From contig JBGAJA010000001.1 of NCBI GenBank assembly GCA_044225175.1, forward strand, positions 742,711 to 806,710: DNA of 64,000 nucleotides. Direction: 5' to 3'. Of this stretch, positions 2,480-60,416 are shown piece after piece. A model generated the notes under the pieces. The model was not told where the DNA came from, searched no databases, and worked only from the letters and a program-made list of their open reading frames with translations. The position numbers and the translations under genes were made by a program. Each line of letters starts with the position of its first letter. The first letter of the stretch is position 1. Source of the stretch: Candidatus Omnitrophota bacterium. Its GTDB lineage: Bacteria > Omnitrophota > Gorgyraeia > Zapsychrales > Fredricksoniimonadaceae.

Positions 2480-3193
2480 TTATTGGACGGCGGGAAGGAG
2501 TATTCTTACCTGGGTACCTTTTCGTTGAGAACTATAGATATTTATGGTTCCTCCAGAGCTCTTTACAATACCATACACCACAGATAAGCCTAAACCCGAG
2601 CTCTTTTCAATATCATGTTCCTGGGTCATAACAAATGGTTCAAATACCTTGGCCAAACGTTGATTGGACATCCCCACTCCATTATCGGAAATCTCAACAA
2701 CAACATCCTTTGAACTATCCTTAAATTTCGTACGAATTTTAATTTCGCCACCGGCAGGCATAGCGTTCATGCAGTTAGTTAAGAGATTGTGAATCACCTG
2801 ATGCCCATCTAAGGCATTAATTTTGACCAGCGGAATACTGCTATCCAAGCGAATCGTTGTCTTTATTTTAGAATTAAACAAAGATGACTTTAATAAGTGA
2901 ATGATGTCATTGATCACTTGATTAATATTACAGGACCCCTCCTGAACTTTGAATGATTCCGACCCACTTAATTCTTGAGCTGACTCATAACATTTTTGGA
3001 TTTGCTTATTCATTTGTTCAAGGGTCAAAAGCATCTGTTTGAAATCTTTAAAGGAAATATATTCAAAATTCTTAGCTTTATAGGTATCTAAAAGCTTTTG
3101 AGAGCTTAAAGAAAGGGTTTTTAAGGGAGAACTGATTTTCTGAATGAGGAGTGATTGGAAGTTGGAAGATTGAGAACTTTTATTCTTTATCAT
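2480..3193 (-). CDS. Histidine-kinase-like ATPase protein: soluble, HATPase_c domain, degenerate H-box
   Basis: 237 aa. C-terminal GHKL motifs NAMPAGGEI / DNGVGM / GLGLSVV. Putative DHp region reads KISSPLKTL with Ser where the phospho-acceptor His is expected. No TM segments. Confidence 0.65.
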   Translation of the reverse strand: MIKNKSSQSSNFQSLLIQKISSPLKTLSLSSQKLLDTYKAKNFEYISFKDFKQMLLTLEQMNKQIQKCYESAQELSGSESFKVQEGSCNINQVINDIIHLLKSSLFNSKIKTTIRLDSSIPLVKINALDGHQVIHNLLTNCMNAMPAGGEIKIRTKFKDSSKDVVVEISDNGVGMSNQRLAKVFEPFVMTQEHDIEKSSGLGLSVVYGIVKSSGGTINIYSSQRKGTQVRILLPAVQ

Positions 3194-8289: not shown

Positions 8290-9060
8290 TTAACGCCCTG
8301 CAGTCGCCAGACTTTCTTTTAACCGAGCAACAATATCTGGGAGAGGGCCCTTTCGAGCAGTAAACTTCTTAATAGGAATTTTCTTACCTTTTTTCTTATC
8401 ATTGATGATCTGTCTTAGTTTCGCTGTGTAATCATCTTTAAATTTCTCAGGATGAAAAGGCTGGGATAATTTATCGATTAACTCTAAAGCTAAATCCATC
8501 TGATTTTTAGGGATTTTCACTTTTTCAGGAAGATGCAGCTCAGAGATGTCTAAGATCTCTTCATGAAAGCGCAGCATATTAAGTATAAGAACACTGCCTT
8601 GAGGTTTGATCATTGTTAAATGCTCTTTTTCCTTGAGAACAAATTTTCCAATACCCACCCTTTTAGACTCAATTAAAGCTTCTCTAAGCAAAGCATAGAC
8701 TTGCTTGGATTGTTTCTCAGGTTCAAGATAATAGGGTTTTTCTGCATACTTAATGTCGATATCTTTCTCTGGAACAAAGGCCTCGATATTGATTGAGTAT
8801 GTTTTTTCGATATCGGCCTGTTTAAAGTCATTCTCATCCAAAATAACATAATCCCCTTTCGTATATTCATACCCACGTACGATATCTTCTTTTTTGACCT
8901 CTTCTCCTGTACTACGACAAACCTTTGTATAACCTATAGGACATAAATCATTCTTGCGCAGCATATTAAAATGAATATGACTTTCTGTGACCGCGGTATA
9001 AAGCTTGACTGGAATATTTACTAAACCAAAGTTGATGGATCCTGTCCAAATAGCACGCAT
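8290..9060 (-). CDS. ku: Ku DNA end-binding protein
   Basis: 256 aa. N-terminus MRAIWTGSINFGLVNIPVKLYTA is the bacterial Ku signature. Lies immediately upstream of ligD. Confidence 0.9.
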   Translation of the reverse strand: MRAIWTGSINFGLVNIPVKLYTAVTESHIHFNMLRKNDLCPIGYTKVCRSTGEEVKKEDIVRGYEYTKGDYVILDENDFKQADIEKTYSINIEAFVPEKDIDIKYAEKPYYLEPEKQSKQVYALLREALIESKRVGIGKFVLKEKEHLTMIKPQGSVLILNMLRFHEEILDISELHLPEKVKIPKNQMDLALELIDKLSQPFHPEKFKDDYTAKLRQIINDKKKGKKIPIKKFTARKGPLPDIVARLKESLATAGR

Positions 9061-17571: not shown

Positions 17572-20500
17572 TTACGACTGATAAACTTCTTCAGGATGGT
17601 TTAGGCCAAGAAACTCTGAGACATTGGTCATTGGCTGAATGTTGGTGATGACGGGTTTAAAACCAGGGGCATTCTGCAGTTTCTGCAACATAGATGGATC
17701 GAGGTTAAATCTGATCTCTTCTCCTGCGTTACGAACTTCCAAAGGAGTTTGATTAGCTGTGAAATCAATACCGCCCTTATTCTGGAACCTCGTAGGTTCC
17801 AGTGGCTTGGTGAGTTGGGCTGGGTCCGTTTTGGGTAAGAGTGTTATGACGGAAAGGAATTGCATAAATCTTGAGAATTTTTTATCATGGGTGAATAAAT
17901 CGTTTTTTGTAAGAACACCAAATTCAAAAGAATCCTTTTGAGCATTACTCTCAAAATATTCAAATAAATGGGCAAGTTCATGAATAGTTGTATTAGTAGG
18001 CTTATGGATCGCTCCATTAGAAGAAATATCCATTCTATGAGCTAATTGAGCATTAATGTACACTTTAGAATGACCCGAACGTCTACTGAACAACCCTTGA
18101 AATGGAGCTTCTGCCTTTACTATAACAACCTGCTCAAACCCTAATTTTTGCCCAATCTTTTGCACGAGACTTAACAAACGCTGTTGTTGAGAATTTAATG
18201 CTTCCTCAGGAATAGCCAGTGATTCAGCACTTATCATGGTGGCAATATGAGACATTCGATTAGCAAGCGCTCCTCTTTGCGCACCCCAAGGATCAACTGT
18301 ATTCAAAGCCTGTTGAAAACCTGCTTCATCTATACCCAAACTCTTGGCTCGTCTTCTGGCTGCCTCTTCAGAAATAGCAGCCTGAGTTTTTATTCTGCGC
18401 ATTAAAAGACTATTTTTGCCATCTTTGGTCTGCACATTCAATTGAGCTAAAAATGGAACCAAAGACTCTTCGAAAGATCGATTTACACCCTTACCTTCAA
18501 ACCAGCCTTTAAGAGTAGTTAAATCTTGATGACTAATAAGATGACCAGCATTAATATCGTTAATCACATCAAAAAGAGACCTTTCTTTTGCCAGAGACCA
18601 TTGTGTTTGATTCTCTGGACTTAAAACATTCCAATAAGACTCTCGCGCAGAGGTTTCCCAATCTCGAGGGATTTGGCTAATATGAAAATCAGGGTTAGTT
18701 AATTCTTGATGGATTAGAGCTTTATAAAACTCGAGGGCCACATACTGTTGAATGACAGGCATAATGACGGCTTCTTGTTCAAATGAACTTCTATTTTGAA
18801 TCAAAGGCAGAGGGATCTGAATAACCAAACGAAGCTCCTCAATATGTTTACGTAAGGATTCTGGAATCAAAGCTAAGAATTCCTTCTTCAAAGACAAACT
18901 TTCAACCCTCAATCCCTTTTTATCAATGATTTGCAATGGCATATCTGAATCTTGAGTGGACCAAAGTTTCAAAGGACCATAGTTGTGCTGACCTATTTTC
19001 AAATCTATTTCTGTTAACAAATTCTTTCCTTTAACTTTGACCTGTTCTTCTGTGATACGACCTTCTTCCTTTTCCTTTTCAACAACCAATTTAAACTGCT
19101 CATTAGAGGCCATCCCTGCAAACATTTTCCATGTATGTTGGCCTAACATCTGGTCAAGCTCAGCAATAGAGCTTTGAGAATTTCTCATTCGTCTTATAAT
19201 GACTCCTTTCGAGAAATCTTGAGGATTGGCAATCCCAACCTTAACAACAAAAACTCGACCCAGAGTTCGATTGACCTTCATCTCAAAGACATAAGCTTCT
19301 TGGCCATTGTTAGCAATCATTTGCACACGATCAACACCAGAATAAATGGTGAATTTACCAGTTCCAAAAAAACCAACTGTTTGGCCATTTTGTTGGTCTT
19401 TTATTTTATTGGACTTGGGGATGAGTAAAGCCAATGCTTTTCCCAGAGGAGGCCCTTGACCATCATCCACAGCTTCTTCGACCAGATCGCCCGTTTGAAC
19501 ATCTTTGTAATAACGCACCAGTAACTTATTAGCCCCTGCATCAGAAGAGTTTTGAGGAATTTCAGCCGCATAGCGGCCTGCTTCACCTTGAACATTCACA
19601 TATTGGCTAATTTCCCGTCTAAGATTAGGATTATCGATCGCCATCATTTGGCCTATATGTTCAGGGGTAAATAATCCTGCAATATCATACATACTCGATT
19701 GATCTATTCCAGAGCGCTTGTCCGCATTGAATTGAGCAATGTTTTCAACAGGAATACCTTCCTCTTTTTGCATAAGCCATTGAATATCTTTGGGCAATTC
19801 CAAGTCTTTCGTTTGCACATGATCAACACGGTTAGTCAAGAAGTCCACAAAAAACTGGGCTTCGCCTAATTCTGTAGCAGAACGGCGATCTGTTGCAGCT
19901 AATACGATTTGTTCTAAAGGTGTATGACTAAAGGCTTCATACCAAAGGGCCAAGTAGGATTCTTTACCCTTGCCTTTTGAAAATAAAAGCAATTTGTTTA
20001 ATTGATCTACTGCAATATCAATACTTTTATTGCCATTTTTTGCGACAAGACTTAAGAATACTACCATCAACGAACAAATATGAACGCTTATCTTTTGTCC
20101 ATAAATTTCATATAAAAGATCCAACATTTCATTAATAGGCTTAACTAAATTGATGGAATGATCGGCTTCTATTTTTAAAGAATATGTCATTGCTAATAAC
20201 CAAGAAGGAATATCAGCATTCTCCAAAGAAATCTTTTCATTCATAGCCATTACAAATATTTGATGGCTTAAACCTCTATAAAATTGATCACCAATCTCAT
20301 TATCAACCAAAGTATGTTCACTGGAAGGAAATAAAGGATTGCCTTTCTTCTTTAAATCTTGTAAACCTCTCAACAGTAGACTCATCTTTTTTATAAAAGA
20401 TTCCACCATAAGGTCATCCAAATTGACATGTTCTTTACCATTAGCTAAAGCATCTTTAAAACGTGTTTTAATCTGCTCTTTTTGCTTAGAATAGAAATAC

Positions 20501-23500
20501 TTGAATATTTCTAATAATTTCCCCTTATCTTTGACTTGAAGGAAATCCAAAACAGGTTGATAGGCTTCTCTAGCACGGGCAACAATCTCATCTCTCTTGT
20601 CTGTCACCTGCTTCCAAAGCATCTCTGCCCTAATCCTTTGTTCTTCTGAAACATCGTTCGCAGGGTTATTAGAGTGTTCATGAGCATATTTTTGAGGATC
20701 AAAAAACCTTATTTCATCTGTTTTAGGATTATGAAAGATAAAAACATTACCATTGATTCCCTGCAATTCAAAATCAGCGGGGATGCCTTTGACATCAAGC
20801 CAGGGATTTTCATTGAAATGCAAGGCATAGCCACCAGAATCTAGAGATGTGAGAACATACCTATTATCTGTGGTGACCCATGAGTCTAACCTATAATCTG
20901 CGTACTTACGCGATAAACGACTGTCCTGAAAACGCATATCAAGAAGACTATTATTTAAAGTATCTTTCTTAAACCATATCCCCTGGGAATAAAACGCTTG
21001 GATCTCCTGATCAGGAACTAAAAGATCACTTGTACTAGAACGATTTAAGTCAAGCCAATAGGTAGTTTCTTGACCGCGCTGATTATCTTTAACGATATAA
21101 ATGTTTCCAACCAACATTCGAGTGGAATCTGGAGGAATCAAATTTGTGGGAACTTTGATAAAATGCTGATCTTTCAAGTGAACAATATCAATCTCTCCAC
21201 TTAGAACAAAGGCTTCCCAGTATTCAGGCAAAATTTGATCATAATTAATACTCACCATATCTCCATTACTCCTGATCTTCCAGATCGTGACATGGTATAA
21301 ATCATTAAAACTACACAAGAAAATTTCATCATTGTTTCTAACAATATTAAATCCTACCTTTGATTCACCAATAACCCTCCCATTCTTTATTAAATAAGCC
21401 TTGAGAGTAGTTTCATCCACAGACGAGTACAAAATAATTTTACCCGAGTGATCCAAAGCTAATTTTTTAGTTTGAATGGTTTCATTAGTTACGAAATTAA
21501 TAATTTGATAGTTTTTAATCCCTGTTTCAGTTGATGTAAACTCTTGAATAAGCACTTCACTGTCCTTTATGAAATATTGTTTTAACGTGTGGTTAGTAAA
21601 GTGTAGAGCATCTATTTCAGCTTGCTCGACACCTCCTCGATCGTTAACCGCTAGAAACACTGTCACTTTATCAGGTGAAGTCATCCTTGGTGTGAATACA
21701 ATAAATTTCCCAGAATCAGAAATAGACACTTCGCCATTAAGATTTTGGTTTATATATTTTTCATTTTTTAGATTATAAATTGATTTTCCATATGGACCTT
21801 CCAGCAGAACAAGCTCACCTTTTACTTCTTTAACTGTTGTATTAGGAGGCACTAAAAAGACGTATTGGGATGCATATAGGGTTTGTCGACCATCATTGCT
21901 TGTAACAACAAAAACTTCCGGCGATATTTCGAGATAATCAACATAAGATATTGGATTTAATTTAGGATTACTCAAATCTCTGAGCTCAATCTTCTGTCCT
22001 TTTCGAAAGCTAGTCCATCGAGTTGCTAAAACTAAAGGAGGATTTTCACTAAAAAAATGATCGATAGGCGCGGTTAGAATTTTGGTTGGTTCATCAGGAT
22101 CCACATAAAGCGCCTTGCCATTGTCTGGATTATAAAACACAAAATATTTGCCATCGAATTCGACTCGGGGATATTCTTTAACAAATACAGGAATTTCACC
22201 TAACCCTCCTGCCTTTAACCCATCACTAATCATATACCGCTCTGATATGGAATTCGCATAAACGATCTTATGGCTCGATTCATCATACGCGCCAGCATCA
22301 ATATTTGGATCTAAACGTGGATTCATCATTCCGAAACTTAAAGTACCATCTTCTAATAAAACAATAATAGTAACCCTAGAAAGAGTTCCAATTAATTTTC
22401 CTTTAAATTTAAATTTTGCAAGCGAATCCTTTAAACTCCATGCTATCGTGTGGGTTGGATTGCTTTCATCAATCAAGAAAGGAAAACGAGGATGCTCATA
22501 AATCTTTCCAAAAATATTTTTTAAATCAAACTCTGCGCCACCTACCCCTAAAATTCCTTCTCCATTAATCCATAAAGCCATAATAGAATTTTTGTAGTTT
22601 TCCGAAAGCAATACTTGAAAAGATTTATCTTTTAAAAAAAACTTATTGGATGCTGTTTTTAATCTAAAGGCCCTATTTCCATCTTTGTCAAAACCTAATA
22701 CAGCTTCTCTATATTTCTCTTCAGAATCATTTAACCATTCCTTCGTTTCTGTGTTATAAAGTCTCACCTGGTCCCCATACGAAAAAATAGCAACTCCAGA
22801 AAGCGGATCAATATAACAAGATTCTGCCTGCGCAATCCCAACTTGAAGATCAACATAATTAGCTGTACCAGAATTTGGTTTTCGTAATTCCATAATCGAA
22901 GAATAGGGATGGAAACTCACCTCTCCTTCAAGATCAGCTAATCTGAGTACTGACTTGTCTTTCATATCAAAAATATGATAGTCATTCATAATACCTTTTA
23001 TTTTAAAAACAATAAATCGACCGTCTGGACTTATTTTCATTTCTTTAATTTTCCTTAATTCTTGGATCTCTCCTTCAAGAAAATTAATATATTTAGATTT
23101 TTCTGTATCAAAAGCTGTATATGAACCATTACTTAACTGATAAAACACATGCCTTCCATCTGGACTTAATATTGGCTCACCTATAGCATCCATCGGGTTT
23201 TGCCATATCAGTTGACTACCCGACTTAAAGACTAAAGCATTGTGGTGGATAGGATCACCTTCAACAGCAACAGCATATTTGTACTCAACCCACATATAAT
23301 CCCCATGTAAAACTCGTATCTTTGTAATTGTTGTTGCTTCACCCACCCATTTAATCTTTTGCCCCGTTGCAATCTCATAAACGTCCCCATTTCTCAACAT
23401 ATATTTCATTCGCGCATCTGCAGGAACATACACTTGTTCTTGAGGTTGTGTCATATCTGGTGGGGTGGTTAAGAACTTCGAAATAGCTTGATTATCTGCA

Positions 23501-26500
23501 GCTCCATCATCGTAAACTTTTAAATCCGGCGTGATAGGAGTATTCATTTTAGCCGTGGGTTGCGGAGCCCCCATTTCGTAACTGGTTGCTGGCTCATCTT
23601 CAGCCAAAAGCTTGATACGTTCCCCTAAGCTTAATAATTCCGTATGTTCATCAGCGCTTAATGGTGATTTACGTCTTTGCTCTAAAAGGTCTAGAAATCG
23701 CTGGGCCATTTGTCTGGGTACAATGACATAGCCATTGGTTTTAATTTTAGGCAAATCGTGGTGTTTTAGGAAATCGAATGTTCTAACATCATAGTTCATA
23801 AACGCTCTTAATGCGTCTGGTGTGAAATCAGCCACGATCAATTCTAATGTCTTTGAACCAAGGGTTTGTTTACTGATTAAATGAAAGTCATTGTATCGAA
23901 CAATGGTGGCACCGATCGATTCAAGCGCTTTTTGGGCGCCCCATTCAAATATATCTTCATTAACAAAGAGAACTTCTTTGCCTTGCTTCATAAGTAATTG
24001 GCCAAAACCTTTCTCATTAGGCAAAAGCACATACTTACCACTAGACTGCAAGGAATTGATCAAACGAGCAATTTTCTTTTTGATCATTCGCTTGATATCA
24101 TTAACCACATAGGCATTTTCTTGATTATCAGCAATCAAAGCTTCTAAGCCAGCCACAAGTGTATTGATGTATTTGATCTTCTGCACATCTCCCATTGGAT
24201 TCTCAAGAATACCTTTGACCATTTGTTCAACAGCCAATTGCATAGGCCAAGGGTTTCGAGCGTCATGATCCGATGGAAAGATGACCTTGTCTCTGGATTG
24301 TTGAACATTGATAAGCGTAGCAAACTCAAGGGCCAAATTTCCTTCAATTACAGAATCAGGATGAGTGGTCTCAGAAAGAGGAATACGCATGATAACTTCC
24401 CCATTTCTAACAAATGCGACAGACCTGCCTGGCTCATGAACATGAATGACCTTGATCTTACGAAGCTCCTCTTGAATGTCTCCTTGTGATAAGCTTTCAG
24501 TTGCCTTTGTTCCCCCTTCACCCGGGACTAACATTCCAGATAACACAGAAATATTCATCCCACTGCCATTATCAACAACCTTGATTTCGTGTTCATTAAA
24601 ATCAATGTTAATCCATTTTTCTTCTGATTTCACAAGTTGGTGTCCACTTGGCACAATAAACTCTCTATTTTCCCATCCATTGATCTTTTCTGTCTGTTGA
24701 TTTAGCTGTGTGGTAATTTTGATGTTTTCTACAATTCCAAAACGACTATGAATATTGTCCTTTAACCATTTTAAAGAATTGACTTGGCCATCCTGTACAA
24801 TGCTTTTGACTTTTCCTATTCTTACAACAGTCCCTTGTGTCATTCCTGGAACTTGGGTGGCCTTAAGAAAATCATCATCAGTCATAGAATAAATTTGTAT
24901 TTGATAAGCCTTATGTTCATCTTTCATGACTGTTAAACGCCAGGCTGGTTTGCCTTCTTGTTTGGTTACAATATCCAATCGATCTCCTGGATCCTCCAAC
25001 CAATCTAAAATTTGTTTAACTCCCTTACCAAACTGACCAATAGAGCCGCCCAATGCATCAATGCTATTAGCAACTGCTTCAATAATCGATTGCCCCTTGG
25101 GGTTTCCACTTTGTAAGCCAATGACAGAATCTAACCGTATCTCTTCATTAGTTCCTGCCTTTAAAGATTTGATCATGGCCTCTGTATAGCCTTGTTTGGC
25201 TAAAGCTTCTAGTGTTTCGATCGGAGATTCCTGACGCTTAAGCTTTTTCTGTGCCCTTAAGAATTCTAAAAGGTTAACCCCATTAAAAGGCAAAGCATTC
25301 CAATAGCTGTTATCACCCACCGGGTTGTCGGGATCAATCCTGGCAGAAACCATGGCTAAATCGCCCATTAAAGCATCTTTGGATATGGATTGAACTGTTT
25401 TAAAAACTTCTCCTAATCCATATTTAGAAGAGTTCAAAGCTAAATCAGCTCCCCCAGAGAAATACTTTCGTGGAATTGATTGATGGGTTATAGGATCAGT
25501 TACTTCTTTGATATAGTTGTAGACGCCTTTTTTGAAAGCGGTCAAGTAACGTTGGTAAATTAATTCGATATCTGTAGGGGCAGGGCTTGTCCCTGCCCTA
25601 GATAGGGCGGGTGTAAAACCCGCCCCTACAATTTTATTCTGATCAATATACACCTTTGCTAAAATCGAATCCCTAATCTTCTTCTTGTACCAGGTAGCTA
25701 GAATCAAAGAACCATACACCTGCCTAAGCTGCACAAAGTTGGCCCCTTCATTGATCTCTTTGGTCAATTCAGGAATAACAACCTCCCGTATGATCTGACT
25801 GTGCAAAAAGGTGTCAGACACCTTTTTATCAACCCGCCCCTTCAAAAAGGTGTCTGACACCTTTTTGGAGGCTACGTAGTCTTCTTCCAACATCACCTTT
25901 AGCCTGGATTCCACTACATAGGCTGTTCCTGCTTTAGCATTCTCATAAACCACTGCCTTTTCAGGGACTATCCATACCTTGTTGAAAGTATTGACTGGGA
26001 TATTGGTTGTTCCATACCTTTTGGCGGATTCTTCATAGATTCTTCTCCAGAATCTCTTTCCTATCTCATCTTCTGGGTACATAAGGCTGGCTGTGATCTG
26101 CTTTAGCATGTAGTCCTGGGCTAATAGGTCACGTCCCATCTCGGTTTGGCCAAAGCTTTCTGGGACAATGCGGTTTTTCTCATAGGGACTTAGATTCACC
26201 CATAGGTCGGCTTCTGGGGTGGTTAAAGAGGCCAAAAAGTACTTGATTAGACGGCTGGATTCTTGCCTTAAATTATGTGCATCAGCGACGGAACGTGACC
26301 CTGGATCTAGGATAAAATCGAAGCGAAAGGGGTTATCTGGATGGACCTTGATTCCTTTGAGTAGAGGTGGGGTCACAGGCGGACTTAAATGCACTCTCAC
26401 CCCAGGCTTAGGCAAATGAATGTCCTGGGCGTACGTCGGCATAGGACCCATACTGGTCACAATAAAACTAACCAAGATGACAATGACTAATGGGGTTTTG

Positions 26501-26547
26501 AGCATATCTATATTACCTTTATATAAATATGCCATATATAAAGTCAT
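17572..26547 (-). CDS. Giant secreted multidomain protein (2991 aa): shared N-terminal module, two GHKL/Hsp90-sacsin-like ATPase-motif regions, PD40-like beta-propeller repeats, C-terminal HExxH, shared C-terminal module
   Basis: Single uninterrupted ORF. Probable true start at Met15 (MLKTPLVIVILVSFIVTSMGPMPTYA-QD signal peptide; AAAGGT ~10 nt upstream). Canonical Bergerat motifs in order: EIPQNSSDAG (I), VDDGQGPPLG (II), GFFGTGKFTIYS (III). An earlier EAVANSIDALGG / DNGSGM region. Repeats of SPDGR(F/H)(I/V)(V/F). HELAHLFEYFE near the C-terminus. Confidence 0.8.
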   Translation of the reverse strand: MTLYMAYLYKGNIDMLKTPLVIVILVSFIVTSMGPMPTYAQDIHLPKPGVRVHLSPPVTPPLLKGIKVHPDNPFRFDFILDPGSRSVADAHNLRQESSRLIKYFLASLTTPEADLWVNLSPYEKNRIVPESFGQTEMGRDLLAQDYMLKQITASLMYPEDEIGKRFWRRIYEESAKRYGTTNIPVNTFNKVWIVPEKAVVYENAKAGTAYVVESRLKVMLEEDYVASKKVSDTFLKGRVDKKVSDTFLHSQIIREVVIPELTKEINEGANFVQLRQVYGSLILATWYKKKIRDSILAKVYIDQNKIVGAGFTPALSRAGTSPAPTDIELIYQRYLTAFKKGVYNYIKEVTDPITHQSIPRKYFSGGADLALNSSKYGLGEVFKTVQSISKDALMGDLAMVSARIDPDNPVGDNSYWNALPFNGVNLLEFLRAQKKLKRQESPIETLEALAKQGYTEAMIKSLKAGTNEEIRLDSVIGLQSGNPKGQSIIEAVANSIDALGGSIGQFGKGVKQILDWLEDPGDRLDIVTKQEGKPAWRLTVMKDEHKAYQIQIYSMTDDDFLKATQVPGMTQGTVVRIGKVKSIVQDGQVNSLKWLKDNIHSRFGIVENIKITTQLNQQTEKINGWENREFIVPSGHQLVKSEEKWINIDFNEHEIKVVDNGSGMNISVLSGMLVPGEGGTKATESLSQGDIQEELRKIKVIHVHEPGRSVAFVRNGEVIMRIPLSETTHPDSVIEGNLALEFATLINVQQSRDKVIFPSDHDARNPWPMQLAVEQMVKGILENPMGDVQKIKYINTLVAGLEALIADNQENAYVVNDIKRMIKKKIARLINSLQSSGKYVLLPNEKGFGQLLMKQGKEVLFVNEDIFEWGAQKALESIGATIVRYNDFHLISKQTLGSKTLELIVADFTPDALRAFMNYDVRTFDFLKHHDLPKIKTNGYVIVPRQMAQRFLDLLEQRRKSPLSADEHTELLSLGERIKLLAEDEPATSYEMGAPQPTAKMNTPITPDLKVYDDGAADNQAISKFLTTPPDMTQPQEQVYVPADARMKYMLRNGDVYEIATGQKIKWVGEATTITKIRVLHGDYMWVEYKYAVAVEGDPIHHNALVFKSGSQLIWQNPMDAIGEPILSPDGRHVFYQLSNGSYTAFDTEKSKYINFLEGEIQELRKIKEMKISPDGRFIVFKIKGIMNDYHIFDMKDKSVLRLADLEGEVSFHPYSSIMELRKPNSGTANYVDLQVGIAQAESCYIDPLSGVAIFSYGDQVRLYNTETKEWLNDSEEKYREAVLGFDKDGNRAFRLKTASNKFFLKDKSFQVLLSENYKNSIMALWINGEGILGVGGAEFDLKNIFGKIYEHPRFPFLIDESNPTHTIAWSLKDSLAKFKFKGKLIGTLSRVTIIVLLEDGTLSFGMMNPRLDPNIDAGAYDESSHKIVYANSISERYMISDGLKAGGLGEIPVFVKEYPRVEFDGKYFVFYNPDNGKALYVDPDEPTKILTAPIDHFFSENPPLVLATRWTSFRKGQKIELRDLSNPKLNPISYVDYLEISPEVFVVTSNDGRQTLYASQYVFLVPPNTTVKEVKGELVLLEGPYGKSIYNLKNEKYINQNLNGEVSISDSGKFIVFTPRMTSPDKVTVFLAVNDRGGVEQAEIDALHFTNHTLKQYFIKDSEVLIQEFTSTETGIKNYQIINFVTNETIQTKKLALDHSGKIILYSSVDETTLKAYLIKNGRVIGESKVGFNIVRNNDEIFLCSFNDLYHVTIWKIRSNGDMVSINYDQILPEYWEAFVLSGEIDIVHLKDQHFIKVPTNLIPPDSTRMLVGNIYIVKDNQRGQETTYWLDLNRSSTSDLLVPDQEIQAFYSQGIWFKKDTLNNSLLDMRFQDSRLSRKYADYRLDSWVTTDNRYVLTSLDSGGYALHFNENPWLDVKGIPADFELQGINGNVFIFHNPKTDEIRFFDPQKYAHEHSNNPANDVSEEQRIRAEMLWKQVTDKRDEIVARAREAYQPVLDFLQVKDKGKLLEIFKYFYSKQKEQIKTRFKDALANGKEHVNLDDLMVESFIKKMSLLLRGLQDLKKKGNPLFPSSEHTLVDNEIGDQFYRGLSHQIFVMAMNEKISLENADIPSWLLAMTYSLKIEADHSINLVKPINEMLDLLYEIYGQKISVHICSLMVVFLSLVAKNGNKSIDIAVDQLNKLLLFSKGKGKESYLALWYEAFSHTPLEQIVLAATDRRSATELGEAQFFVDFLTNRVDHVQTKDLELPKDIQWLMQKEEGIPVENIAQFNADKRSGIDQSSMYDIAGLFTPEHIGQMMAIDNPNLRREISQYVNVQGEAGRYAAEIPQNSSDAGANKLLVRYYKDVQTGDLVEEAVDDGQGPPLGKALALLIPKSNKIKDQQNGQTVGFFGTGKFTIYSGVDRVQMIANNGQEAYVFEMKVNRTLGRVFVVKVGIANPQDFSKGVIIRRMRNSQSSIAELDQMLGQHTWKMFAGMASNEQFKLVVEKEKEEGRITEEQVKVKGKNLLTEIDLKIGQHNYGPLKLWSTQDSDMPLQIIDKKGLRVESLSLKKEFLALIPESLRKHIEELRLVIQIPLPLIQNRSSFEQEAVIMPVIQQYVALEFYKALIHQELTNPDFHISQIPRDWETSARESYWNVLSPENQTQWSLAKERSLFDVINDINAGHLISHQDLTTLKGWFEGKGVNRSFEESLVPFLAQLNVQTKDGKNSLLMRRIKTQAAISEEAARRRAKSLGIDEAGFQQALNTVDPWGAQRGALANRMSHIATMISAESLAIPEEALNSQQQRLLSLVQKIGQKLGFEQVVIVKAEAPFQGLFSRRSGHSKVYINAQLAHRMDISSNGAIHKPTNTTIHELAHLFEYFESNAQKDSFEFGVLTKNDLFTHDKKFSRFMQFLSVITLLPKTDPAQLTKPLEPTRFQNKGGIDFTANQTPLEVRNAGEEIRFNLDPSMLQKLQNAPGFKPVITNIQPMTNVSEFLGLNHPEEVYQS
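25573..25630. repeat. GC-rich double-hairpin palindromic element, copy G1, in-frame inside giant CDS
   Basis: TGTAGGGG-CAGGG-cttgt-CCCTG-CCCTAGATAGG-GCGGG-tgtaaaa-CCCGC-CCCTACA. Terminal inverted repeats TGTAGGGG/CCCCTACA and two internal stem-loops. Encodes ...PALSRAGTSPAPTDIE... Confidence 0.75.
25805..25866. repeat. Two 23-bp perfect palindromes (AAAAAGGTGTC[A/T]GACACCTTTTT) 36 bp apart inside giant CDS
   Basis: 25805-25827 and 25844-25866 are exact reverse complements of each other, and each is self-complementary. They encode the duplicated peptide KKVSDTFL. The spacer contains AACCCGCCCCTT, resembling half of the double-hairpin element. Confidence 0.7.
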
Positions 26548-28243: not shown

Positions 28244-29168
28244 ATGCCTTTTCCCGCAACTTATCTAACCATGTTTTAAACTTAGCACGGAACTGGTCAT
28301 CGAAAAGTTTATTATAAATTTCATTCTTTACATCTTCGATTCCCTGCTTTTGACCAAGAACAATATTTTTAACTTTAAACAAATAGACACCACTCTCTAC
28401 TTCCACTGGCTGAGAAACCTCTCCTTGTTTCAAAGAAAAAACTTCTTTTTCTATGGCAGGGACCATTTGACCTTGCTCAAGCATTCCAACGGAGGGAGCT
28501 TGAGAGTATTGCTTACTGACTTTTTCAAAATCTCCGCTAACTATTAAATCTTTTCTGGCTTGCTTGATTTTATTTAATGCATCTGATTTTCCATCTTTAA
28601 AAGAAATATAAATGGAATCCAAATCATATTGAGACTTACTTTCAAATTCATCTTTATGATTATTGTAATAAACTGTCACATCTTCAGGATTGACAAAATT
28701 TTTGTCTCTTACTTCAAGATCAACTTCATATTTACTTTTCATCTGATTAATAATTTTCTTTTTGATATCTGTGACCGTAACCCCCTGGGTATTGATTTCC
28801 GTTAAAAAAGCATCCTCCGAAGGATACCGACTTTTAATTTCCTTCAATCTTTTTTCAACAACTTCGCCCCTAATCTCAATGCCCTTTTTATTAGCAGCTT
28901 CTAAGATCAACTTGTCTTCAATAAGCTGGTTGACCCCACGCTCTTCGTAAGAAGCAATGATCTGTTGAATTTCTTCAGGAGTTTTATGTTCAACTTTTAA
29001 CTGGCGGTAAATACCAGCAATATAATCCTTTAAATCTTTTAGGGTGATGACTTCACTGTTGACGATTGCAACAATGGCATCATTAATAGGTTTAGCGGCA
29101 AAACTATTGGCAGGTATTATTACAAGCATTAAAACAATAAGAGCAGACATTCCTAATTGCTTAGTCAT
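28224..29168 (-). CDS. surA: SurA-like periplasmic chaperone / parvulin-type peptidyl-prolyl isomerase
   Basis: The ORF track extends to 29237. The likely true start is Met24 (MTKQLGMSALIVLMLVIIPANSFA signal peptide), ATG at 29166-29168 with GGAGA upstream. SurA N-domain-like region plus a C-terminal parvulin-like region. Confidence 0.75.
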   Translation of the reverse strand: MTKQLGMSALIVLMLVIIPANSFAAKPINDAIVAIVNSEVITLKDLKDYIAGIYRQLKVEHKTPEEIQQIIASYEERGVNQLIEDKLILEAANKKGIEIRGEVVEKRLKEIKSRYPSEDAFLTEINTQGVTVTDIKKKIINQMKSKYEVDLEVRDKNFVNPEDVTVYYNNHKDEFESKSQYDLDSIYISFKDGKSDALNKIKQARKDLIVSGDFEKVSKQYSQAPSVGMLEQGQMVPAIEKEVFSLKQGEVSQPVEVESGVYLFKVKNIVLGQKQGIEDVKNEIYNKLFDDQFRAKFKTWLDKLREKAYVEIRN

Positions 29169-31053
29169 TTTTCTCAATCTCCAATTCTTTCTTAAGATTC
29201 TCAATACATTCTTTAAGCATGCGGCAATACAAATCAAAACCTATGGCCGTAATAAAACCATGCTGCTGACTTCCCAGCAAATTCCCAGCCCCTCGAATCT
29301 GTAAATCTTCAAAGGCTATGTGGAAGCCTGCCCCTAAATCACTGTGTTTCTCGATTGCTTTTAATCTATGCTTGGAAACATCTGATAGCACTTCTTTGGC
29401 TGGCACAATTAAATAAGCCCAAGCTTGAATATCTAAACGACCAACTCGTCCACGCAATTGATGTAATTCAGAAAGACCAAACTTGTCCGCCCGGTTAACA
29501 ATCAATGTGTTTGCTGTTGGGACATCAATTCCCGACTCAATAATCGTCGTACAAACCAAAACATCTATCTTTTGTTGTAAGAATTTTAACATAATTTCTT
29601 CTAAAAGACGACCACTCATTTGCCCATGAGCGATCTCTATCCTGGCTTGAGGGGCCAAGGCTTTGACTCGATTGGCAATTGTTTCAATATTGTCCACACG
29701 ATTGTGCAAAAAGAACACTTGTCCCTTACGCTTTAATTCCCTTTTAATAGCCTCTTCAATAATCTCATCATCCCATTGAATAGTCTCTGTCTTAATGGCC
29801 AATCGATTGGTAGGTGGCGTTGATATTACGGACATGTCTCTTGCTCCCGAAAGCGCCATATACAAAGTTCTTGGAATAGGAGTAGCAGAAAGCGTCAAAA
29901 CATCAGCCAAAAGCCGAAATTGCTTTAACTTTTCTTTAGATTTAACTCCAAAACGCTGTTCTTCATCAATAATCACCAATTCAAGGTTCTTAAATCCAAT
30001 ATCCTTAGACAAAAGCCTATGAGTCCCTATCACAATATCGACCTTGCCTTCCCTAAGCTCTCTAACAATAACAGCCTGCTCTGCCTTGGTTCTAAATCTT
30101 GAAAGCATTCCCACTTTAACGGGAAAATTAGCCAGACGTTTAGAGAAATTGATATAGTGCTGTTCCGCTAAGATGGTTGTTGGAACAAGGATAGCGACCT
30201 GTTTGCCATCCATCACAGCCTTAAAAGCAGCCCGCATAGCTACTTCTGTCTTACCATATCCCACATCAGCACAAATGAGCCTATCCATTGGTCTTGGGGA
30301 CTCCATATCCGCCTTAACTTCTGCGGTGGACTTTAGTTGATCAGGGGTTTCCTTAAAAGGAAATGTAGCTTCAAATTCTTTTTGATATTCTGTATCTTTA
30401 GAAAATGCAAACCCACTTAATTGAGTGCGTAATGCCTGAATACGAAGAAGTTCAGCAGCCATAAGCCGCAATCGTTTTTCAATAGACTTTCTAGTTGATT
30501 CCCACTCTTTACTTCCTAATTTATGAAGACTTGTTGAACGCTTAGTAAAAGACACATATTTTTGGACCAAATGCACGTCATGCTTAGGAACAAAAAGCTT
30601 GTCTCCATCCTTGTATTCAATAATCAAATGCTCTTTTTTCTCATTATTTAATTCAAAGTCTCTTACGCCAACGAATCTTCCAATTCCATGATTATTATGG
30701 ACAACAAAATCACCTGTTTCGATATTAACAAAATTATTTAAAGGAATTTCACTAGAGAATACGGAGTTGGAAGACGTCTTAAAGGGAAGGATAATCACAA
30801 TCTGATGGTTTTCAATGATTTGACCACTGGAAAGGTCGAAACCTGAAATAGTTCGGATCACATCATCTTCTGTGTCAAAACGTATAGGAGTTTCAAAATT
30901 GGCTGGATAAATATCAAGAATTCCCCCGCGAAGGGCGAATTCTCCTTCTTTAAAGGCTTTGGTCACACGACTATAACCAAAAACCACTAAGGATTTAAGG
31001 ACATCATCAAAATTAATATTTTGACCTACAATAAATTCTAATGATTTAAACAT
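29161..31053 (-). CDS. mfd: Compact Mfd-like transcription-repair coupling factor / RecG-type SF2 translocase (630 aa)
   Basis: GEFALRGGILDIYP (Mfd D2-like), Walker A ADVGYGKTEVA, DEEQRFGV, TATPIPRT, and Mfd-specific DLQIRGAGNLLGSQQHGFITAIGFDLY. It ends ~20 aa after that motif, so the D7-equivalent region is absent. N-terminal D1 and most of D3 also appear absent. Confidence 0.75.
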   Translation of the reverse strand: MFKSLEFIVGQNINFDDVLKSLVVFGYSRVTKAFKEGEFALRGGILDIYPANFETPIRFDTEDDVIRTISGFDLSSGQIIENHQIVIILPFKTSSNSVFSSEIPLNNFVNIETGDFVVHNNHGIGRFVGVRDFELNNEKKEHLIIEYKDGDKLFVPKHDVHLVQKYVSFTKRSTSLHKLGSKEWESTRKSIEKRLRLMAAELLRIQALRTQLSGFAFSKDTEYQKEFEATFPFKETPDQLKSTAEVKADMESPRPMDRLICADVGYGKTEVAMRAAFKAVMDGKQVAILVPTTILAEQHYINFSKRLANFPVKVGMLSRFRTKAEQAVIVRELREGKVDIVIGTHRLLSKDIGFKNLELVIIDEEQRFGVKSKEKLKQFRLLADVLTLSATPIPRTLYMALSGARDMSVISTPPTNRLAIKTETIQWDDEIIEEAIKRELKRKGQVFFLHNRVDNIETIANRVKALAPQARIEIAHGQMSGRLLEEIMLKFLQQKIDVLVCTTIIESGIDVPTANTLIVNRADKFGLSELHQLRGRVGRLDIQAWAYLIVPAKEVLSDVSKHRLKAIEKHSDLGAGFHIAFEDLQIRGAGNLLGSQQHGFITAIGFDLYCRMLKECIENLKKELEIEKND

Positions 31054-31065
31054 ACTTTATTATAC

Positions 31066-33693
31066 TTAGCTTAAAGGAATATCCAAGAAGGTTTGTGGAC
31101 TTGCAAGTGGAACAATGCGAAGAATCATTGGCTCAATTCCTAAGAAATCCTCACCTTGAAATTGAGCCGTAAAGGCTGGAAATTTCATCTCAATATTTTT
31201 ACCTTCTTTAACAACATCTAATTCCATATTCTTTGAGCTCAAATCAACACCACCAGGATTATTAATCTTGGCAGCTTTTGAATGACTCATAGCAAAATCT
31301 ACTTTCTTACTAAAACCTTCGGGATACTGGGTTACCCCATCTTCTTCTTTTAAAATAATCTGATAAGTATTTCCTGATATTCTCTTATGGCTCAAATATT
31401 TCTCAACCAACTCTGCGAGCTCATCAAGTTTACTATTTAAATCATCAATCTCTACAAAATCATTCCACAGATCATGGGTTAAATTGTTAACTATGGAAGT
31501 CTTTATTCTATTTCTTAGTATTACCCTCTCAGCTTCTCCTATTGGTGGAGCCGTAAATCTAGAGCCTTTCAAAGATTCCGCAATACTATGAGGGTCATAT
31601 GTATCAATCCTCTCAAGCAATAATGAAATTATGTGTTGAACATCAGTCATTGACAAATTTCTTGATAAATCAAGGTTAAAATCACCAGCACCAAGAGGAC
31701 GAATAGTCAATAGATTAAGGGCTTCAAGAATATCGTCGTCTTTTACAAAGGGGAACGCACGTTTCAAGAATTTTCCAAGTTGTTCTTTAACATTTGATTT
31801 AGACATCAGCGGACTCATAGAAAAAAATTCTTTATGAGCTATATTAGCCAAAACAATACTTCTAATTTCTGCAGGGATGTCTGTACTTAGAATATAATTA
31901 GAATCTGTCTTAAAATTGATCGTATGCTTTAGTTTTTCTTGGATTCTAAAGCCCTCTATAGCTGAGCGGATGATCGTCAATATGGGGAGTTTTATGTTAC
32001 CATTGTTATTAAACAATCTTTCTCTGATAAGATTTGCTTCATCCTGAGTTTGATTCTCAAATAATCGATATCTATTATTCTGCATTTGATCAACCTTCTG
32101 CACTAAACGATCAAATAAATTACTATTTTTATAAAAGATCTTTTCTAAAAGCGGCAATCCTTCCTTATCAAGATAATCCGGGTTTTCAAAAGCCTCACGA
32201 AACAACCTGCCGATTACATCTCCTTTCTTAGCAAAACGTATAAATTGTTGAAAATCATAGAATGAAACATTTGAATTCATCGCAAAATCTTTAGATTTGT
32301 TATGTACTCTTGCCATATAGACACTAGCCATAGCCAAATCTCCATTGGCCCCCAGACTATCTTGAGAGGACGCCGTTGAAACACGCTGTAGTACATTCGG
32401 AATCCCCAAGTCTTGAGCTATGCCCCCTGAGAAGTACTTCCTAGAAATTCGCTGGTCTCGGGTTGATTCTAGATCTTCTTTGATGTAGTTAAATACGCCT
32501 TTTTTGTAGGCTTGGAGGTATTGATGGTAGATGGTTTCAACGTCAGATGGTGGGTTCCTCTGGGTCGCTTTCAGTTTCAACCCTGAGTCGCTTGGCAATG
32601 TGCTTGGGGACACGTTCCTGTTGATTTTGACCTGAACATGTCCCCTGGTCGGCGTTGTATAACCAATTCCTTCAATTTTCTTCTTATCTGCATACACCTG
32701 ATTCAATAATGTATTCTTAAGGGTTTGTTTGTACCATGTGGCTAGGATCATGGAATAGAACATTTGGCGCAAGGGGGCGAAGTTTTGGCCTTGGTTGACC
32801 TCGTTTTCTAATTCGGGCAATATGATGTCGCGGATGATTTGGTTTGCTAAGGCGTTGGGGGTGTTTCCCTGGGGTGCTTTCGCATTCAGCGCTGTCTCGC
32901 TTGGCAGCATGCTTGGGGACACGTTCTTATTGGTTTTGTAATGAACATGTCCCCTGGTTGGCGTTTGATTTTTTTCATTAGCTAGATAATCTTCCTCCAA
33001 CATCACCTTCAAATGCGCTCCAACGATATACCCTACGTTATTCCTCTCAAGAACCTTGGCTTTATCGGCTACGATCCATACTTTATTGAATGTATTCACA
33101 GGAATTTGGGTATTACCATAAAGGGCTTGGGCCTTTGCATAAACCTTGTCCCAGAATTTCTTGCCTAGGTCTTTCTCAGGATAAATTAGAGAAGCGGTTA
33201 ATTGTTTGAGGATGTAATCTTGGGCCAGCATGTCTCGGCCTAGCTCGGTGTTCCCTAGTTCTTCAGGAACTATTCTGTCTTTCTCATAGGGGGATAAATT
33301 CACCCAGAGGTCTTTTTCGGGGATAGTTAATGAGGCTAGGAAATATTTGATTAATTTGTTTGATTCGTCTTGTAGGGGTGACCCTTGCGGTCGCCCTTTT
33401 TGGACAGGGGCGAGCCCTGCCACTACGGACAATCCAGAATTCCCTGTATCCACGACGAAATCAAATAACAAAGGATTCTCTGGATGGACTTTCAGGCCTT
33501 TGATCATGACAGGCATATAGGCCTGGCTCAAAGACATCATTTCTCCAGGCACAGGCAATTGTAGGGGCGAGGTTCCCTCGCCCTTAATAGGCCTGGGAAA
33601 CCCAGCCCCTACATCAGCCCAAGTAGAGCGTGGCCCCAAAATGCCTGTAATTATGAAGCACAGGAGAATAACAACAGATGTCATTTTTTTCAT
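31066..33693 (-). CDS. Secreted protein (875 aa), paralogous to the N- and C-terminal modules of the 2991-aa giant protein
   Basis: Signal peptide MKKMTSVVILLCFIITGILGPRSTWA. N-terminal ~400 aa align with the giant protein (e.g. LIKYFLASLT(I/T)PE(K/A)DLWVNLSPYEK(D/N)RIVPE...NTFNKVWIV...LKVMLEEDY). The C-terminal ~70 aa are also related. Confidence 0.8.
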   Translation of the reverse strand: MKKMTSVVILLCFIITGILGPRSTWADVGAGFPRPIKGEGTSPLQLPVPGEMMSLSQAYMPVMIKGLKVHPENPLLFDFVVDTGNSGLSVVAGLAPVQKGRPQGSPLQDESNKLIKYFLASLTIPEKDLWVNLSPYEKDRIVPEELGNTELGRDMLAQDYILKQLTASLIYPEKDLGKKFWDKVYAKAQALYGNTQIPVNTFNKVWIVADKAKVLERNNVGYIVGAHLKVMLEEDYLANEKNQTPTRGHVHYKTNKNVSPSMLPSETALNAKAPQGNTPNALANQIIRDIILPELENEVNQGQNFAPLRQMFYSMILATWYKQTLKNTLLNQVYADKKKIEGIGYTTPTRGHVQVKINRNVSPSTLPSDSGLKLKATQRNPPSDVETIYHQYLQAYKKGVFNYIKEDLESTRDQRISRKYFSGGIAQDLGIPNVLQRVSTASSQDSLGANGDLAMASVYMARVHNKSKDFAMNSNVSFYDFQQFIRFAKKGDVIGRLFREAFENPDYLDKEGLPLLEKIFYKNSNLFDRLVQKVDQMQNNRYRLFENQTQDEANLIRERLFNNNGNIKLPILTIIRSAIEGFRIQEKLKHTINFKTDSNYILSTDIPAEIRSIVLANIAHKEFFSMSPLMSKSNVKEQLGKFLKRAFPFVKDDDILEALNLLTIRPLGAGDFNLDLSRNLSMTDVQHIISLLLERIDTYDPHSIAESLKGSRFTAPPIGEAERVILRNRIKTSIVNNLTHDLWNDFVEIDDLNSKLDELAELVEKYLSHKRISGNTYQIILKEEDGVTQYPEGFSKKVDFAMSHSKAAKINNPGGVDLSSKNMELDVVKEGKNIEMKFPAFTAQFQGEDFLGIEPMILRIVPLASPQTFLDIPLS
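32552..32656. repeat. ~105-bp direct repeat, copy A, inside the 875-aa paralog CDS, with internal inverted repeat GGGGACACGTTC...GAACATGTCCCC
   Basis: Near-identical to 32861-32966. Each copy encodes TPTRGHV..K.N.NVSPS.LPS. The internal ~12-bp inverted repeat could form a hairpin. Confidence 0.7.
32861..32966. repeat. ~105-bp direct repeat, copy B, inside the 875-aa paralog CDS
   Basis: See copy A. About 309 bp separates the copies. Confidence 0.7.
33371..33428. repeat. Double-hairpin palindromic element, degenerate copy P2, in-frame in the 875-aa paralog CDS
   Basis: TGTAGGGG-TGACCC-ttgc-GGTCGCCC-tttttgga-CAGGG-gcgag-CCCTG-CCACTACGG. Same termini and architecture as G1, with a degenerate 3' end. 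Encodes LAPVQKGRPQGSPLQDE. Confidence 0.55.
33560..33613. repeat. Double-hairpin palindromic element, copy P1, in-frame in the 875-aa paralog CDS
   Basis: TGTAGGGGC-GAGG-ttc-CCTC-GCCCTTAATAGG-CCTGGG-aaa-CCCAGC-CCCTACA. Encodes GAGFPRPIKGEGTSPLQLPV just after the signal peptide. Confidence 0.75.
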
Positions 33694-60054: not shown

Positions 60055-60416
60055 TATTTTTTATTTAATTCAGATAGGACAATTTGTTCAAGCTCTTCAA
60101 GCACTAACGGTTTGTGGATAAACCCGACTACACCTAATGCTTTAGTTTCCTTAATAGTTTCTTCATCTTCAACACCGGAAACCATGATGATCTTTGTTGA
60201 TTGGTCTTTTTTTCGAAGCTCTTTGAGGACTTCCACACCAGTCATTTGCTCCATGCGCACATCTAATAACACTAAATCAGGCTTTTCCATCAAAATAATC
60301 TCCAAAGCTTCTGCTCCACCGCTTGCCGTAAAAACTTCAATATTTCGTTTCTTAAAATAACTTTTAGCAAATTCTCTGATGTCAATTTCATCATCTACAA
60401 TCAATAACTTAGACAT
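60054..60416 (-). CDS. Single-domain response regulator (receiver)
   Basis: The likely start is MSKLLIVDDEIDIRE (AAGGAGG 9 nt upstream). The track ORF starts 6 codons earlier. Phospho-acceptor D in LVLLDVRM. Confidence 0.8.
   Translation of the reverse strand: MSKLLIVDDEIDIREFAKSYFKKRNIEVFTASGGAEALEIILMEKPDLVLLDVRMEQMTGVEVLKELRKKDQSTKIIMVSGVEDEETIKETKALGVVGFIHKPLVLEELEQIVLSELNKK

Follow-up and report, generated by a model that had tools for sequence, protein, structure and literature searches.

A predicted exported 2991-residue Omnitrophota protein with two GHKL-like modules, a beta-propeller region and a zincin-like domain between the conserved head and tail of a large paralogous family

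GHKL ATPases normally act as ATP-closed dimeric clamps, and their motifs follow the canonical order N box, G1, G2. Several Hsp90-like modules can share a single chain, as in sacsin, a giant chaperone that contains three of them (PMC3710099). Among Omnitrophota, which have been read as host-dependent or predatory (PMC10066038), the Archaeovorins exceed 30,000 amino acids (aa) and have many predicted transmembrane helices and SecA-like domains (West-Roberts et al. 2023 preprint, 10.1101/2023.11.21.568195). Here we analyzed a 64,000-nucleotide stretch of a Candidatus Omnitrophota genome (assembly GCA_044225175.1, contig JBGAJA010000001.1, positions 742,711 to 806,710; hereafter the window), in which an uninterrupted open reading frame (ORF) of the minus strand (17572..26547) codes for a 2991-aa polypeptide with a body of about 330 kDa, referred to below as the giant protein. 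The ORF is intact, and every motif quoted in a first-pass annotation made from the sequence letters was found in it. Taken one by one, its domains belong to known kinds, and exported Omnitrophota proteins of large size have been described before. We tentatively favor a reading, which we would rate as slightly short of probable, in which the giant protein is a Sec-exported member of a family whose two GHKL modules, propeller and zincin-like domain would operate as an ATP-dependent clamp and protease effector on or in a host.

The architecture of the giant protein was derived by mapping matches onto it and from an alignment of 22 homologous sequences (26-38% identity). A full-length homologue search returned more than 1600 relatives, of which the named ones all come from metagenome-assembled genomes (MAGs) of Candidatus Omnitrophica/Omnitrophota and one is 100% identical to the giant protein. 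From the N- to the C-terminus, the chain comprises a family-wide signal peptide (aa 15-40), an N-module (aa ~41-400) found in nearly all relatives at 55-69% identity, Core A (aa 421-1000), present in about 20 homologues of the set, a variable middle region (aa ~1040-1960) partly shared among homologues, Core B (aa ~1960-2910), carried by the identical set of about 20 homologues, and a C-tail (aa 2920-2991) again found in nearly all relatives. Residues E490, N494, D497, D659, G663, N2333, D2336, D2361, G2365, G2392, G2395, G2397, H2856, E2857, H2860 and H2887 are invariant in the 22-sequence alignment. Searches with the giant protein as a single sequence gave weak matches in the right regions, such as yeast HSC82 in the PDB (E 0.23, aa 2390-2455), which would not settle the domain assignments alone.

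The GHKL-II module (18469..19659, minus strand; aa 2297-2693) contains a Bergerat ATP-binding core at aa ~2320-2460. Its motifs I (E-x3-N-x2-D, with E2329, N2333 and D2336 in EIPQNSSDAG, aa 2329-2338), II (D-x-G-x-G, with D2361-x-G-x-G2365 in VDDGQGPPLG, aa 2360-2369) and III (G-x-x-G-x-G, with G2392-x-x-G-x-G2397 in GFFGTGKFTIYS, aa 2392-2403) occur in canonical GHKL order together with K2381, and each of the motif residues is either invariant or conserved to 90% or more among the homologues. A conserved extension of about 230 aa that includes D2542, G2545, P2579 and R2586 follows the core. When a 19-sequence profile of aa 2290-2700 was searched against the PDB, 127 sequences matched at E<1 with a best value of 8.5e-7, and all 60 of the 127 matches that were listed are Hsp90-family N-domains. 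E2329, N2333, D2361 and the GFFGTG lid fall in register with E33, N37, D79 and the GxxGxG of Hsp82, which respectively serve in catalysis, bind Mg, bind adenine and form the glycine lid. Among the 19 homologues, 8 matched Pfam HATPase_c_3 (best 6.1e-7), 10 the NCBIfam sacsin-type ATP-binding model (best 5.5e-6) and 3 an HSP90-family model. The giant protein alone reached E 0.1 and 13 bits with HATPase_c_3 (cut-off 25; aa 2328-2412) and E 0.0012 and 19.2 bits with the sacsin-type model NF047352, or 17.9 bits for the segment (aa 2325-2410), the curated cut-off of that model being 50 bits. Judged from its sequence, GHKL-II is a genuine Bergerat domain of the Hsp90/sacsin branch with an intact nucleotide site. 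The first-pass annotation had proposed GHKL motifs of the Hsp90/sacsin type while allowing that profile searches might give no significant GHKL match; the family profile matches Hsp90 significantly, and the catalytic Glu, Asn and Asp whose state it had left to be checked are all in place. The sacsin label itself did not stand.

Sacsin membership was rejected on the 19.2 bits scored against a cut-off of 50, and no DnaJ or HEPN match was found in Pfam or NCBIfam at E <= 1. Like sacsin, the giant protein is a very large single chain with more than one Hsp90-like ATP-binding module, and the sacsin-type NCBIfam model is its best single-sequence match. Unlike sacsin, it is bacterial, carries a signal peptide, lacks DnaJ, HEPN and ubiquitin-like domains, and includes a propeller and a zincin-like domain in the same chain. 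Assignment to Hsp90 proper was also rejected, as the profile of aa 2290-2700 matches N-domain residues only and finds no middle or C-terminal domain; Hsp90 middle/C-domain structures were reached by Foldseek at E ~2 only. The alignment of GHKL-II with the Hsp90/HtpG N-domain spans motifs I-III and takes in both the 'K-S-x-K' segment and the GxxGxG lid. In contrast with Hsp90/HtpG, it lies deep in an exported chain, at aa ~2320 of 2991, precedes a zincin-like domain and shares the polypeptide with a second, rearranged GHKL-like module. Core B aligns contiguously with the homologues from aa ~1900 on, and its N-terminal part (19660..20667, minus strand; aa ~1961-2296), of unknown fold, matched no Pfam or NCBIfam family.

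The zincin-like domain stands directly after GHKL-II in 80/80 proteins having both. Its core (17833..18210, minus strand; aa ~2780-2905) contains HELAHLFEYFE at aa 2856-2866, in which H2856-E-L-A-H2860 forms an HExxH motif, and a T-H2887-D element about 27 residues downstream. Across 20 sequences (21-36% identity), H2856, E2857, H2860 and H2887 do not vary, the pattern HExxH..(T/S)H is kept in 76/78 representatives, and H2887 would be the third metal ligand. The AlphaFold2 (AF2) model of aa 2690-2991 has a mean predicted local distance difference test (pLDDT) score of 68, with about 75-90 in the core, and shows a helix, three strands, the HExxH helix and a further helix after THD. The best structural matches found by Foldseek are almost all zincins, namely SPRTN (E 0.079, prob 0.82), BepA (E 0.13, prob 0.77), HtpX, BlaR1 and MATCAP. 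Profile searches of Pfam and the PDB returned nothing significant, only scattered sub-threshold zincin matches, and no known peptidase family fitted. An exhaustive hidden Markov model (HMM) search of 1.84 billion representatives detected the domain in 106 proteins only. We read the HExxH domain as a new zincin-like domain that is probably functionally tied to the ATPase. The HExxH had been set down at first as a weak hint; it deserves more weight, because both it and the downstream His are invariant.

The giant protein resembles minimal zincins (SprT/SPRTN, M48 HtpX/BepA, M56 BlaR1, MATCAP) in that its HExxH sits on a predicted helix after a three-stranded sheet and a further metal-ligand candidate lies on the next element. 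It differs from them in that no match rises above threshold (E 0.07-1), no Pfam family accommodates the spacing and surroundings of the candidate third ligand (HExxH-x26-T-H-D), and its domain family, with 106 representatives only, is always found after GHKL-II.

Core A (23548..25287, minus strand; aa 421-1000) contains the GHKL-I module at aa ~480-700, followed by a conserved region of unknown fold. GHKL-I includes an N-box-like motif with E490, N494 and D497 in EAVANSIDALGG (aa 490-501), a G2-like IGQFGKG (aa 503-509), N623 and a G1 box, D659-N-G-S-G-M (DNGSGM, aa 659-664); E490, N494, D497, G504, F506, G509, N623, D659, G663 and M664 are invariant. Pfam HATPase_c matches 7/19 close homologues and reaches the gathering score in a distant one, P0203 (28.6 bits, cut-off 26.4), and the GHKL-II HMM also matches aa 503-560, covering G2 and the strands that follow. 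The window contains a real histidine kinase, a soluble catalytic core of 237 aa (2480..3193, minus strand) whose best PDB matches reach E 3e-15. The Core A profile picks it up weakly and N623 aligns weakly with its N-box Asn, an observation that aided the reading of GHKL-I. The evidence, weak to moderate in strength, suggests that GHKL-I is a real conserved GHKL-like module with rearranged motifs, possibly a permuted or split Bergerat fold. The partial set of GHKL motifs noticed earlier in the chain is thus conserved, but it is not a simple partial copy, its N-box-, G2- and G1-like motifs being in non-canonical order.

The variable middle region (20668..23430, minus strand; aa ~1040-1960) is of the beta-propeller type. 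Strand motifs consisting of SPDG and hydrophobic residues lie at aa 1128 (SPDGRHVF), 1173 (SPDGRFIVF), 1465, 1612, 1701 and 1932. Nine propeller-type strand motifs were observed and 0.3 were expected from shuffled sequences, an enrichment of about 30-fold, and 7/9 fall within aa 1000-1960. An 8-sequence profile of aa 1040-1500 matched, over several blades, the archaeal YVTN surface-layer protein 1l0q (E 4.9e-6), the hydrazine synthase beta subunit 5c2v (5.5e-5), the periplasmic lactonase PpgL 6igb (5.7e-4) and the CFAP52 WD40 structure 8snb (8.3e-4) in the PDB, and the propeller HMM matches again at aa 1596-1729 and 1932-1953. Many homologues lack the region or have something else in its place. 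The propeller proposed by the first-pass annotation for the middle third is therefore borne out by the family profile, and it is predicted to be of the generic YVTN/lactonase type, the closest profile matches being 7-bladed propellers of these two types. The PD40/TolB type suggested initially was dropped in favor of this assignment: Pfam PD40 remained below its 20.9-bit cut-off (E 0.47 for the whole protein, at aa 1123-1136, and 0.06 for the segment), and with the aa 1040-1500 profile TolB came no lower than E ~1.4.

The two ends of the giant protein define the family to which it belongs. The N-module (25348..26427, minus strand; aa ~41-400), a head of about 360 aa, carries the motifs FRFDFILD, WVNLSPYEKNR, TEMGRDLLAQDY.LKQ, TFNKVWIVP and RKYFSGG. 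It has no sequence relative in Pfam, NCBIfam or the PDB and resembles no known family or fold. The AF2 model, confident over the first ~260 residues, has two beta-hairpins packed with long helices, and the N-module is predicted to be a conserved head of novel fold. A scan of species-representative genomes detected at least 590 N-module loci, many per MAG. The best 80 of these all lie in Omnitrophota-type MAGs, some of which were submitted under the label 'uncultured Planctomycetales' and one under Candidatus Elulimicrobium, and one MAG holds at least 8 of the 80.

The C-tail (17575..17790, minus strand; aa 2920-2991), about 65 aa at the extreme C-terminus, follows the pattern GGIDF...L.V.N.G..I.F..DP..L..LQNAPGF.PVI.NI.PM.N...FLG. 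It is present in 109/120 family members, stops at a median distance of 6 residues short of the C-terminus, and is about 55-61% identical between the giant protein and many other members. Its pLDDT in the giant protein is below 50, the hydropathy scan revealed no hydrophobic anchor in it, and it has no match in the PDB or NCBIfam. The first-pass annotation had wondered whether the tail is a secretion or sorting tag. Among the C-terminal sorting models of Pfam and NCBIfam (type IX secretion C-terminal domain, PEP-CTERM, LPXTG, autotransporter barrel, RTX/type I secretion), none matched the whole protein or 22 tails, and identification of the C-tail as a known sorting signal was rejected for want of any model or structure match. 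In the close homologues P0017, P0018, P0020 and P0026, the usual tail is replaced by another C-terminal domain of about 110 aa after GGIDFR..LP, an indication that the family uses two or more kinds of tail.

The head and tail had been noticed earlier as shared modules, and this sharing extends throughout the family. An 875-aa paralogue in the window (31066..33693, minus strand) couples a signal peptide of the giant-protein type and an N-module to an unrelated middle region and a divergent C-tail. By BLASTP, it is 44% identical to the giant protein over aa 22-401 (E 2e-105), with a weak match in the tail (E 1e-3); the N-module HMM recognizes it at E 2.3e-139, and no Pfam domain was detected in it. 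More than 1600 family members have in common only the N-module and the tail, placed around unrelated cargoes of the cytoplasmic enzyme type, which include methyltransferases, ABC1 and protein kinases, SNF2/DEAD helicases, MutS, AAA, GGDEF, receiver, ATP-grasp, HAD, GNAT and glycosyltransferase domains. The giant protein, taken at first for a singular oddity, carries one of the many cargoes found in a very large paralogous family restricted to Omnitrophota, so that the puzzle of an ATPase outside the cytoplasm applies family-wide.

Large exported Omnitrophota proteins with the same domain repertoire as the N-module family have been described (bioRxiv 10.1101/2023.11.21.568195). Archaeovorins share with this family the phylum, the predicted export and methyltransferase, HATPase_c, GGDEF, HAD, AAA_5 and PPDK_N domains. 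In contrast, the giant protein is 2991 aa long, has one N-terminal hydrophobic segment, its signal peptide, and has no SecA domain according to Pfam. Neither the N-module and C-tail nor the domain combination of the giant protein is described in the Archaeovorin and Omnitrophota giant-protein literature searched, the coverage of which is incomplete. The N-module/C-tail cassette, the fixed GHKL-zincin fusion and the rearranged GHKL-I are also absent from Pfam, NCBIfam and PADLOC. Analogies exist with the TPS domain of TpsA proteins (type Vb secretion) and with the type IX C-terminal domain, in which a Sec signal and a conserved terminal module of 60-350 aa are likewise placed on variable passengers. 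In contrast, the modules described here have no sequence or fold similarity to these two, neither Haemagg_act nor the type IX domain matches the giant protein, the N-module is predicted to be alpha/beta with long helices and not a beta-helix, and no transporter gene is adjacent.

Core A, GHKL-II and the zincin-like domain also occur together in soluble relatives of about 1850-2400 aa that have no signal peptide, N-module, recognizable propeller, tail or hydrophobic segment (P0203, P0213, P0214, P0206, P0212, P0188, P0179, P0217 and the product of locus L081, 4324-9852). The last of these is encoded amid housekeeping genes. One soluble relative, which lacks the HExxH, is labeled Candidatus Dojkabacteria (Patescibacteria). 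Because such relatives without a signal peptide exist, the cargo of the giant protein seems to descend from a cytoplasmic machine that used nucleotides and that Omnitrophota have placed behind an export signal.

In the reading that we favor, the propeller would bind a macromolecular target, GHKL-I and GHKL-II would form, within one chain, the ATP-driven clamp that GHKL ATPases otherwise make as dimers, and the zincin-like domain would cleave or process the captured substrate, making the protein a putative ATP-gated capture-and-cleave device with both ATPase and protease activities. The N-module and C-tail would serve export beyond the inner membrane, anchoring or delivery, and the site of action would be a nucleotide-containing compartment, that is, the surface or the interior of a targeted host or prey cell. 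Such a compartment is the most likely one since the nucleotide residues are invariant in exported forms and the family cargoes include enzymes dependent on nucleoside triphosphates (NTP) or S-adenosylmethionine (SAM). Action on a host cell is favored on the same two grounds, and it fits both the host-dependent or predatory lifestyle proposed for Omnitrophota (PMC10066038) and the giant exported proteins of like domain content described from this phylum (10.1101/2023.11.21.568195). A more specific version, which we hold to be rather doubtful, is that the signal peptide, N-module and C-tail constitute a hitherto unrecognized, Omnitrophota-specific cassette for export and for delivery into or onto hosts, comparable in function to a secretion tag or translocation platform. 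With it, these host-dependent nanobacteria would ship out large sets of nucleotide-dependent enzymes of cytoplasmic type, the cargo here being a new kind of ATP-driven protease in which a GHKL pair, one of them possibly permuted, would clamp a substrate held by the propeller for a novel zincin.

Several points weigh against the clamp-and-protease reading. The periplasm and the cell exterior lack ATP, and for this reason the ATPase part fails if the giant protein stays in the periplasm. Neither beside the gene nor at 80 related loci was a secretion-system, immunity or partner gene found, and a route across the outer membrane is not known. The N-module and C-tail have no detectable relatives, and their role was deduced from position and conservation alone; the signal peptide was likewise judged by sequence rules alone. 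The giant protein by itself falls below the curated cut-off of every GHKL, sacsin, PD40 and peptidase model. GHKL-I departs from the canonical order, as its N-box-like motif leads directly to G2, and G1 comes 150 residues after G2, past N623; the only HtpG match of its family profile spans the G1 box (E 0.002), and its alignment with GHKL-II by hhalign is weak (49% probability). Foldseek returned nothing at E <= 1e-3 for the zincin-like domain.

The explanation that best survives beside it, and which we regard as unlikely, is that the giant protein is exported and resides in the periplasm or at the surface, for instance in a coat or adhesin layer, and acts independently of nucleotides. The propeller and the GHKL modules would then only bind or scaffold, and the zincin-like domain would be an extracellular protease with host surface proteins or fellow family members as its substrates. 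A signal peptide is present, propellers and zincins often occur in extracellular proteins, an archaeal surface-layer protein is the best match of the propeller, and the periplasm and exterior are devoid of ATP, all of which would suit such a protein. However, E2329, N2333, D2361 and the glycine lid are invariant or nearly so in exported homologues at about 30% identity, a conservation that is hard to explain without nucleotide binding, and enzymes that cannot work without NTP or SAM are frequent among the other family cargoes.

A second alternative concerns the N-terminus. The Sec-type signal peptide of the giant protein (26428..26505, minus strand; aa 15-40) reads MLK / TPLVIVILVSFIVTSMG / PMPTYA | QD, with MGPMPTYA|QD at aa 33-42, and it satisfies the usual rules for Sec export and signal peptidase I cleavage, having a basic n-region, a short hydrophobic core (17 residues) and small residues at -3/-1. 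The same layout recurs family-wide: a K/R n-region, a hydrophobic core of about 15 residues, a GPxP breaker and A-x-A|Q/D precede an LPxPG anchor that is present in 110/120 members, and the n-region carries K/R in 98/110. The first-pass annotation had both proposed the TYA|QD cleavage site, which is A-x-A-like, and considered that the N-terminus might instead be a transmembrane anchor with cytoplasmic topology. In this alternative, the segment would remain uncleaved and would tether the 330-kDa body in the cytoplasm of the producing cell as a chaperone/protease machine for quality control or regulation. The ATP-binding motifs are intact and ATP is available there, the family cargoes are of cytoplasmic type, the soluble GHKL-GHKL-zincin relatives without a signal peptide exist, and a 2026 preprint describes many long Omnitrophota proteins as anchored in the inner membrane with cytoplasmic domains (10.64898/2026.06.07.730766). 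Against this, the positive n-region in 98/110 members indicates that the N-terminus is inside and the body outside, 17 residues are short for a membrane-spanning helix, and the GPxP breaker and A-x-A|Q/D recur at a fixed distance from LPxPG. The hydropathy scan revealed two hydrophobic stretches only. The sole strongly hydrophobic one is aa 11-40; the other, aa 2150-2172 in the N-terminal part of Core B, is moderately hydrophobic (peak hydropathy 1.75, under the signal-peptide value) and looks like a buried helix, and no further membrane segment was found beyond the signal peptide. The N-terminus thus has the features of a textbook cleaved Sec signal peptide conserved across the family, which argues against a cytoplasmic body, and we consider the tethered alternative distinctly improbable.

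That the motifs arose by chance in a large, fast-evolving filler protein having no real GHKL, propeller or zincin is suggested by single-sequence searches being sub-threshold only, but this explanation has next to no credibility and was refuted by the family profiles (E 8.5e-7 for Hsp90 and 4.9e-6 for the propeller), by motif residues invariant in 20-22 homologues and by a domain order fixed in 80/80 relatives.

The genes surrounding the giant gene are housekeeping genes. On the same strand, a thioesterase gene and gatCAB lie downstream, and rsmA, pdxA, genes for a SurA-like chaperone and a short Mfd-like helicase, and secDF lie upstream. The window thus codes for a SurA-like periplasmic chaperone, which points to an envelope of the diderm type. 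The Mfd-like protein (29161..31053, minus strand) has UvrB-interaction, CarD/TRCF-RID and helicase domains in 630 aa, far below the typical length of Mfd, and the 3' end of its gene overlaps the start of the listed SurA-like ORF. The base composition of the giant ORF is similar to that of the remainder of the window. No neighboring gene is conserved across the 80 N-module loci, and the recurrent 'ORFs' found around them are antisense shadows of the N-module only. Two other functional readings were discarded. A role in anti-phage defense found no support, as PADLOC matched 0 families and the gene context is housekeeping. A polymorphic toxin was rejected because both ends of the protein are conserved and the middle is variable, without an immunity-like neighbor or any conserved neighbor at the 80 loci.

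Family homologues open with MLKTPL, which corresponds to Met15 of the ORF (window 26505), and AAGG occurs about 10 nt 5' of this codon. For these two reasons, Met15 is probably the true start of the giant protein. Two earlier starts in 26505..26547, the ORF's first ATG and Met5, used by the NCBI gene model, probably both make the protein too long.

Elsewhere in the window, four tandem genes of about 530 aa each (52496..58870, plus strand) include two that were scanned and code for 7TM-HisKA histidine kinases. A fifth kinase, with a GAF domain (60409..62577, minus strand), and an HD_5 (HD-GYP-like) protein located between kinases (58867..60054, minus strand) follow, and the density of sensor kinases over 52496..62577 is unusual for a small genome. 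A complete LigD with phosphoesterase, ligase and primase-polymerase parts is encoded at 5769..8285 (minus strand). It adjoins a 256-aa ORF (8290..9060, minus strand) that is putatively Ku-like by position only, the two being a candidate pair for non-homologous end joining.

Omnitrophota are widespread, uncultured, ultra-small bacteria that are thought to live off other cells, and how they act on their hosts is unknown. If the giant protein were merely an envelope binder, it would be an ordinary uncharacterized surface protein. The fixed fusion of a GHKL ATPase to a zincin, with its rearranged second GHKL module, would otherwise represent a new architecture coupling ATP to proteolysis, and this GHKL-zincin cargo is also found in the small subfamily without a signal peptide, one member of which is labeled Candidatus Dojkabacteria, another host-dependent lineage. 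The cargoes of the family need ATP, SAM or GTP, which are unavailable in the periplasm, and the family defined by the head and tail suggests an undescribed way of exporting enzymes that are normally intracellular. If the head and tail are indeed an export or delivery device, they would define a phylum-wide repertoire of effectors that could be listed directly from genomes.

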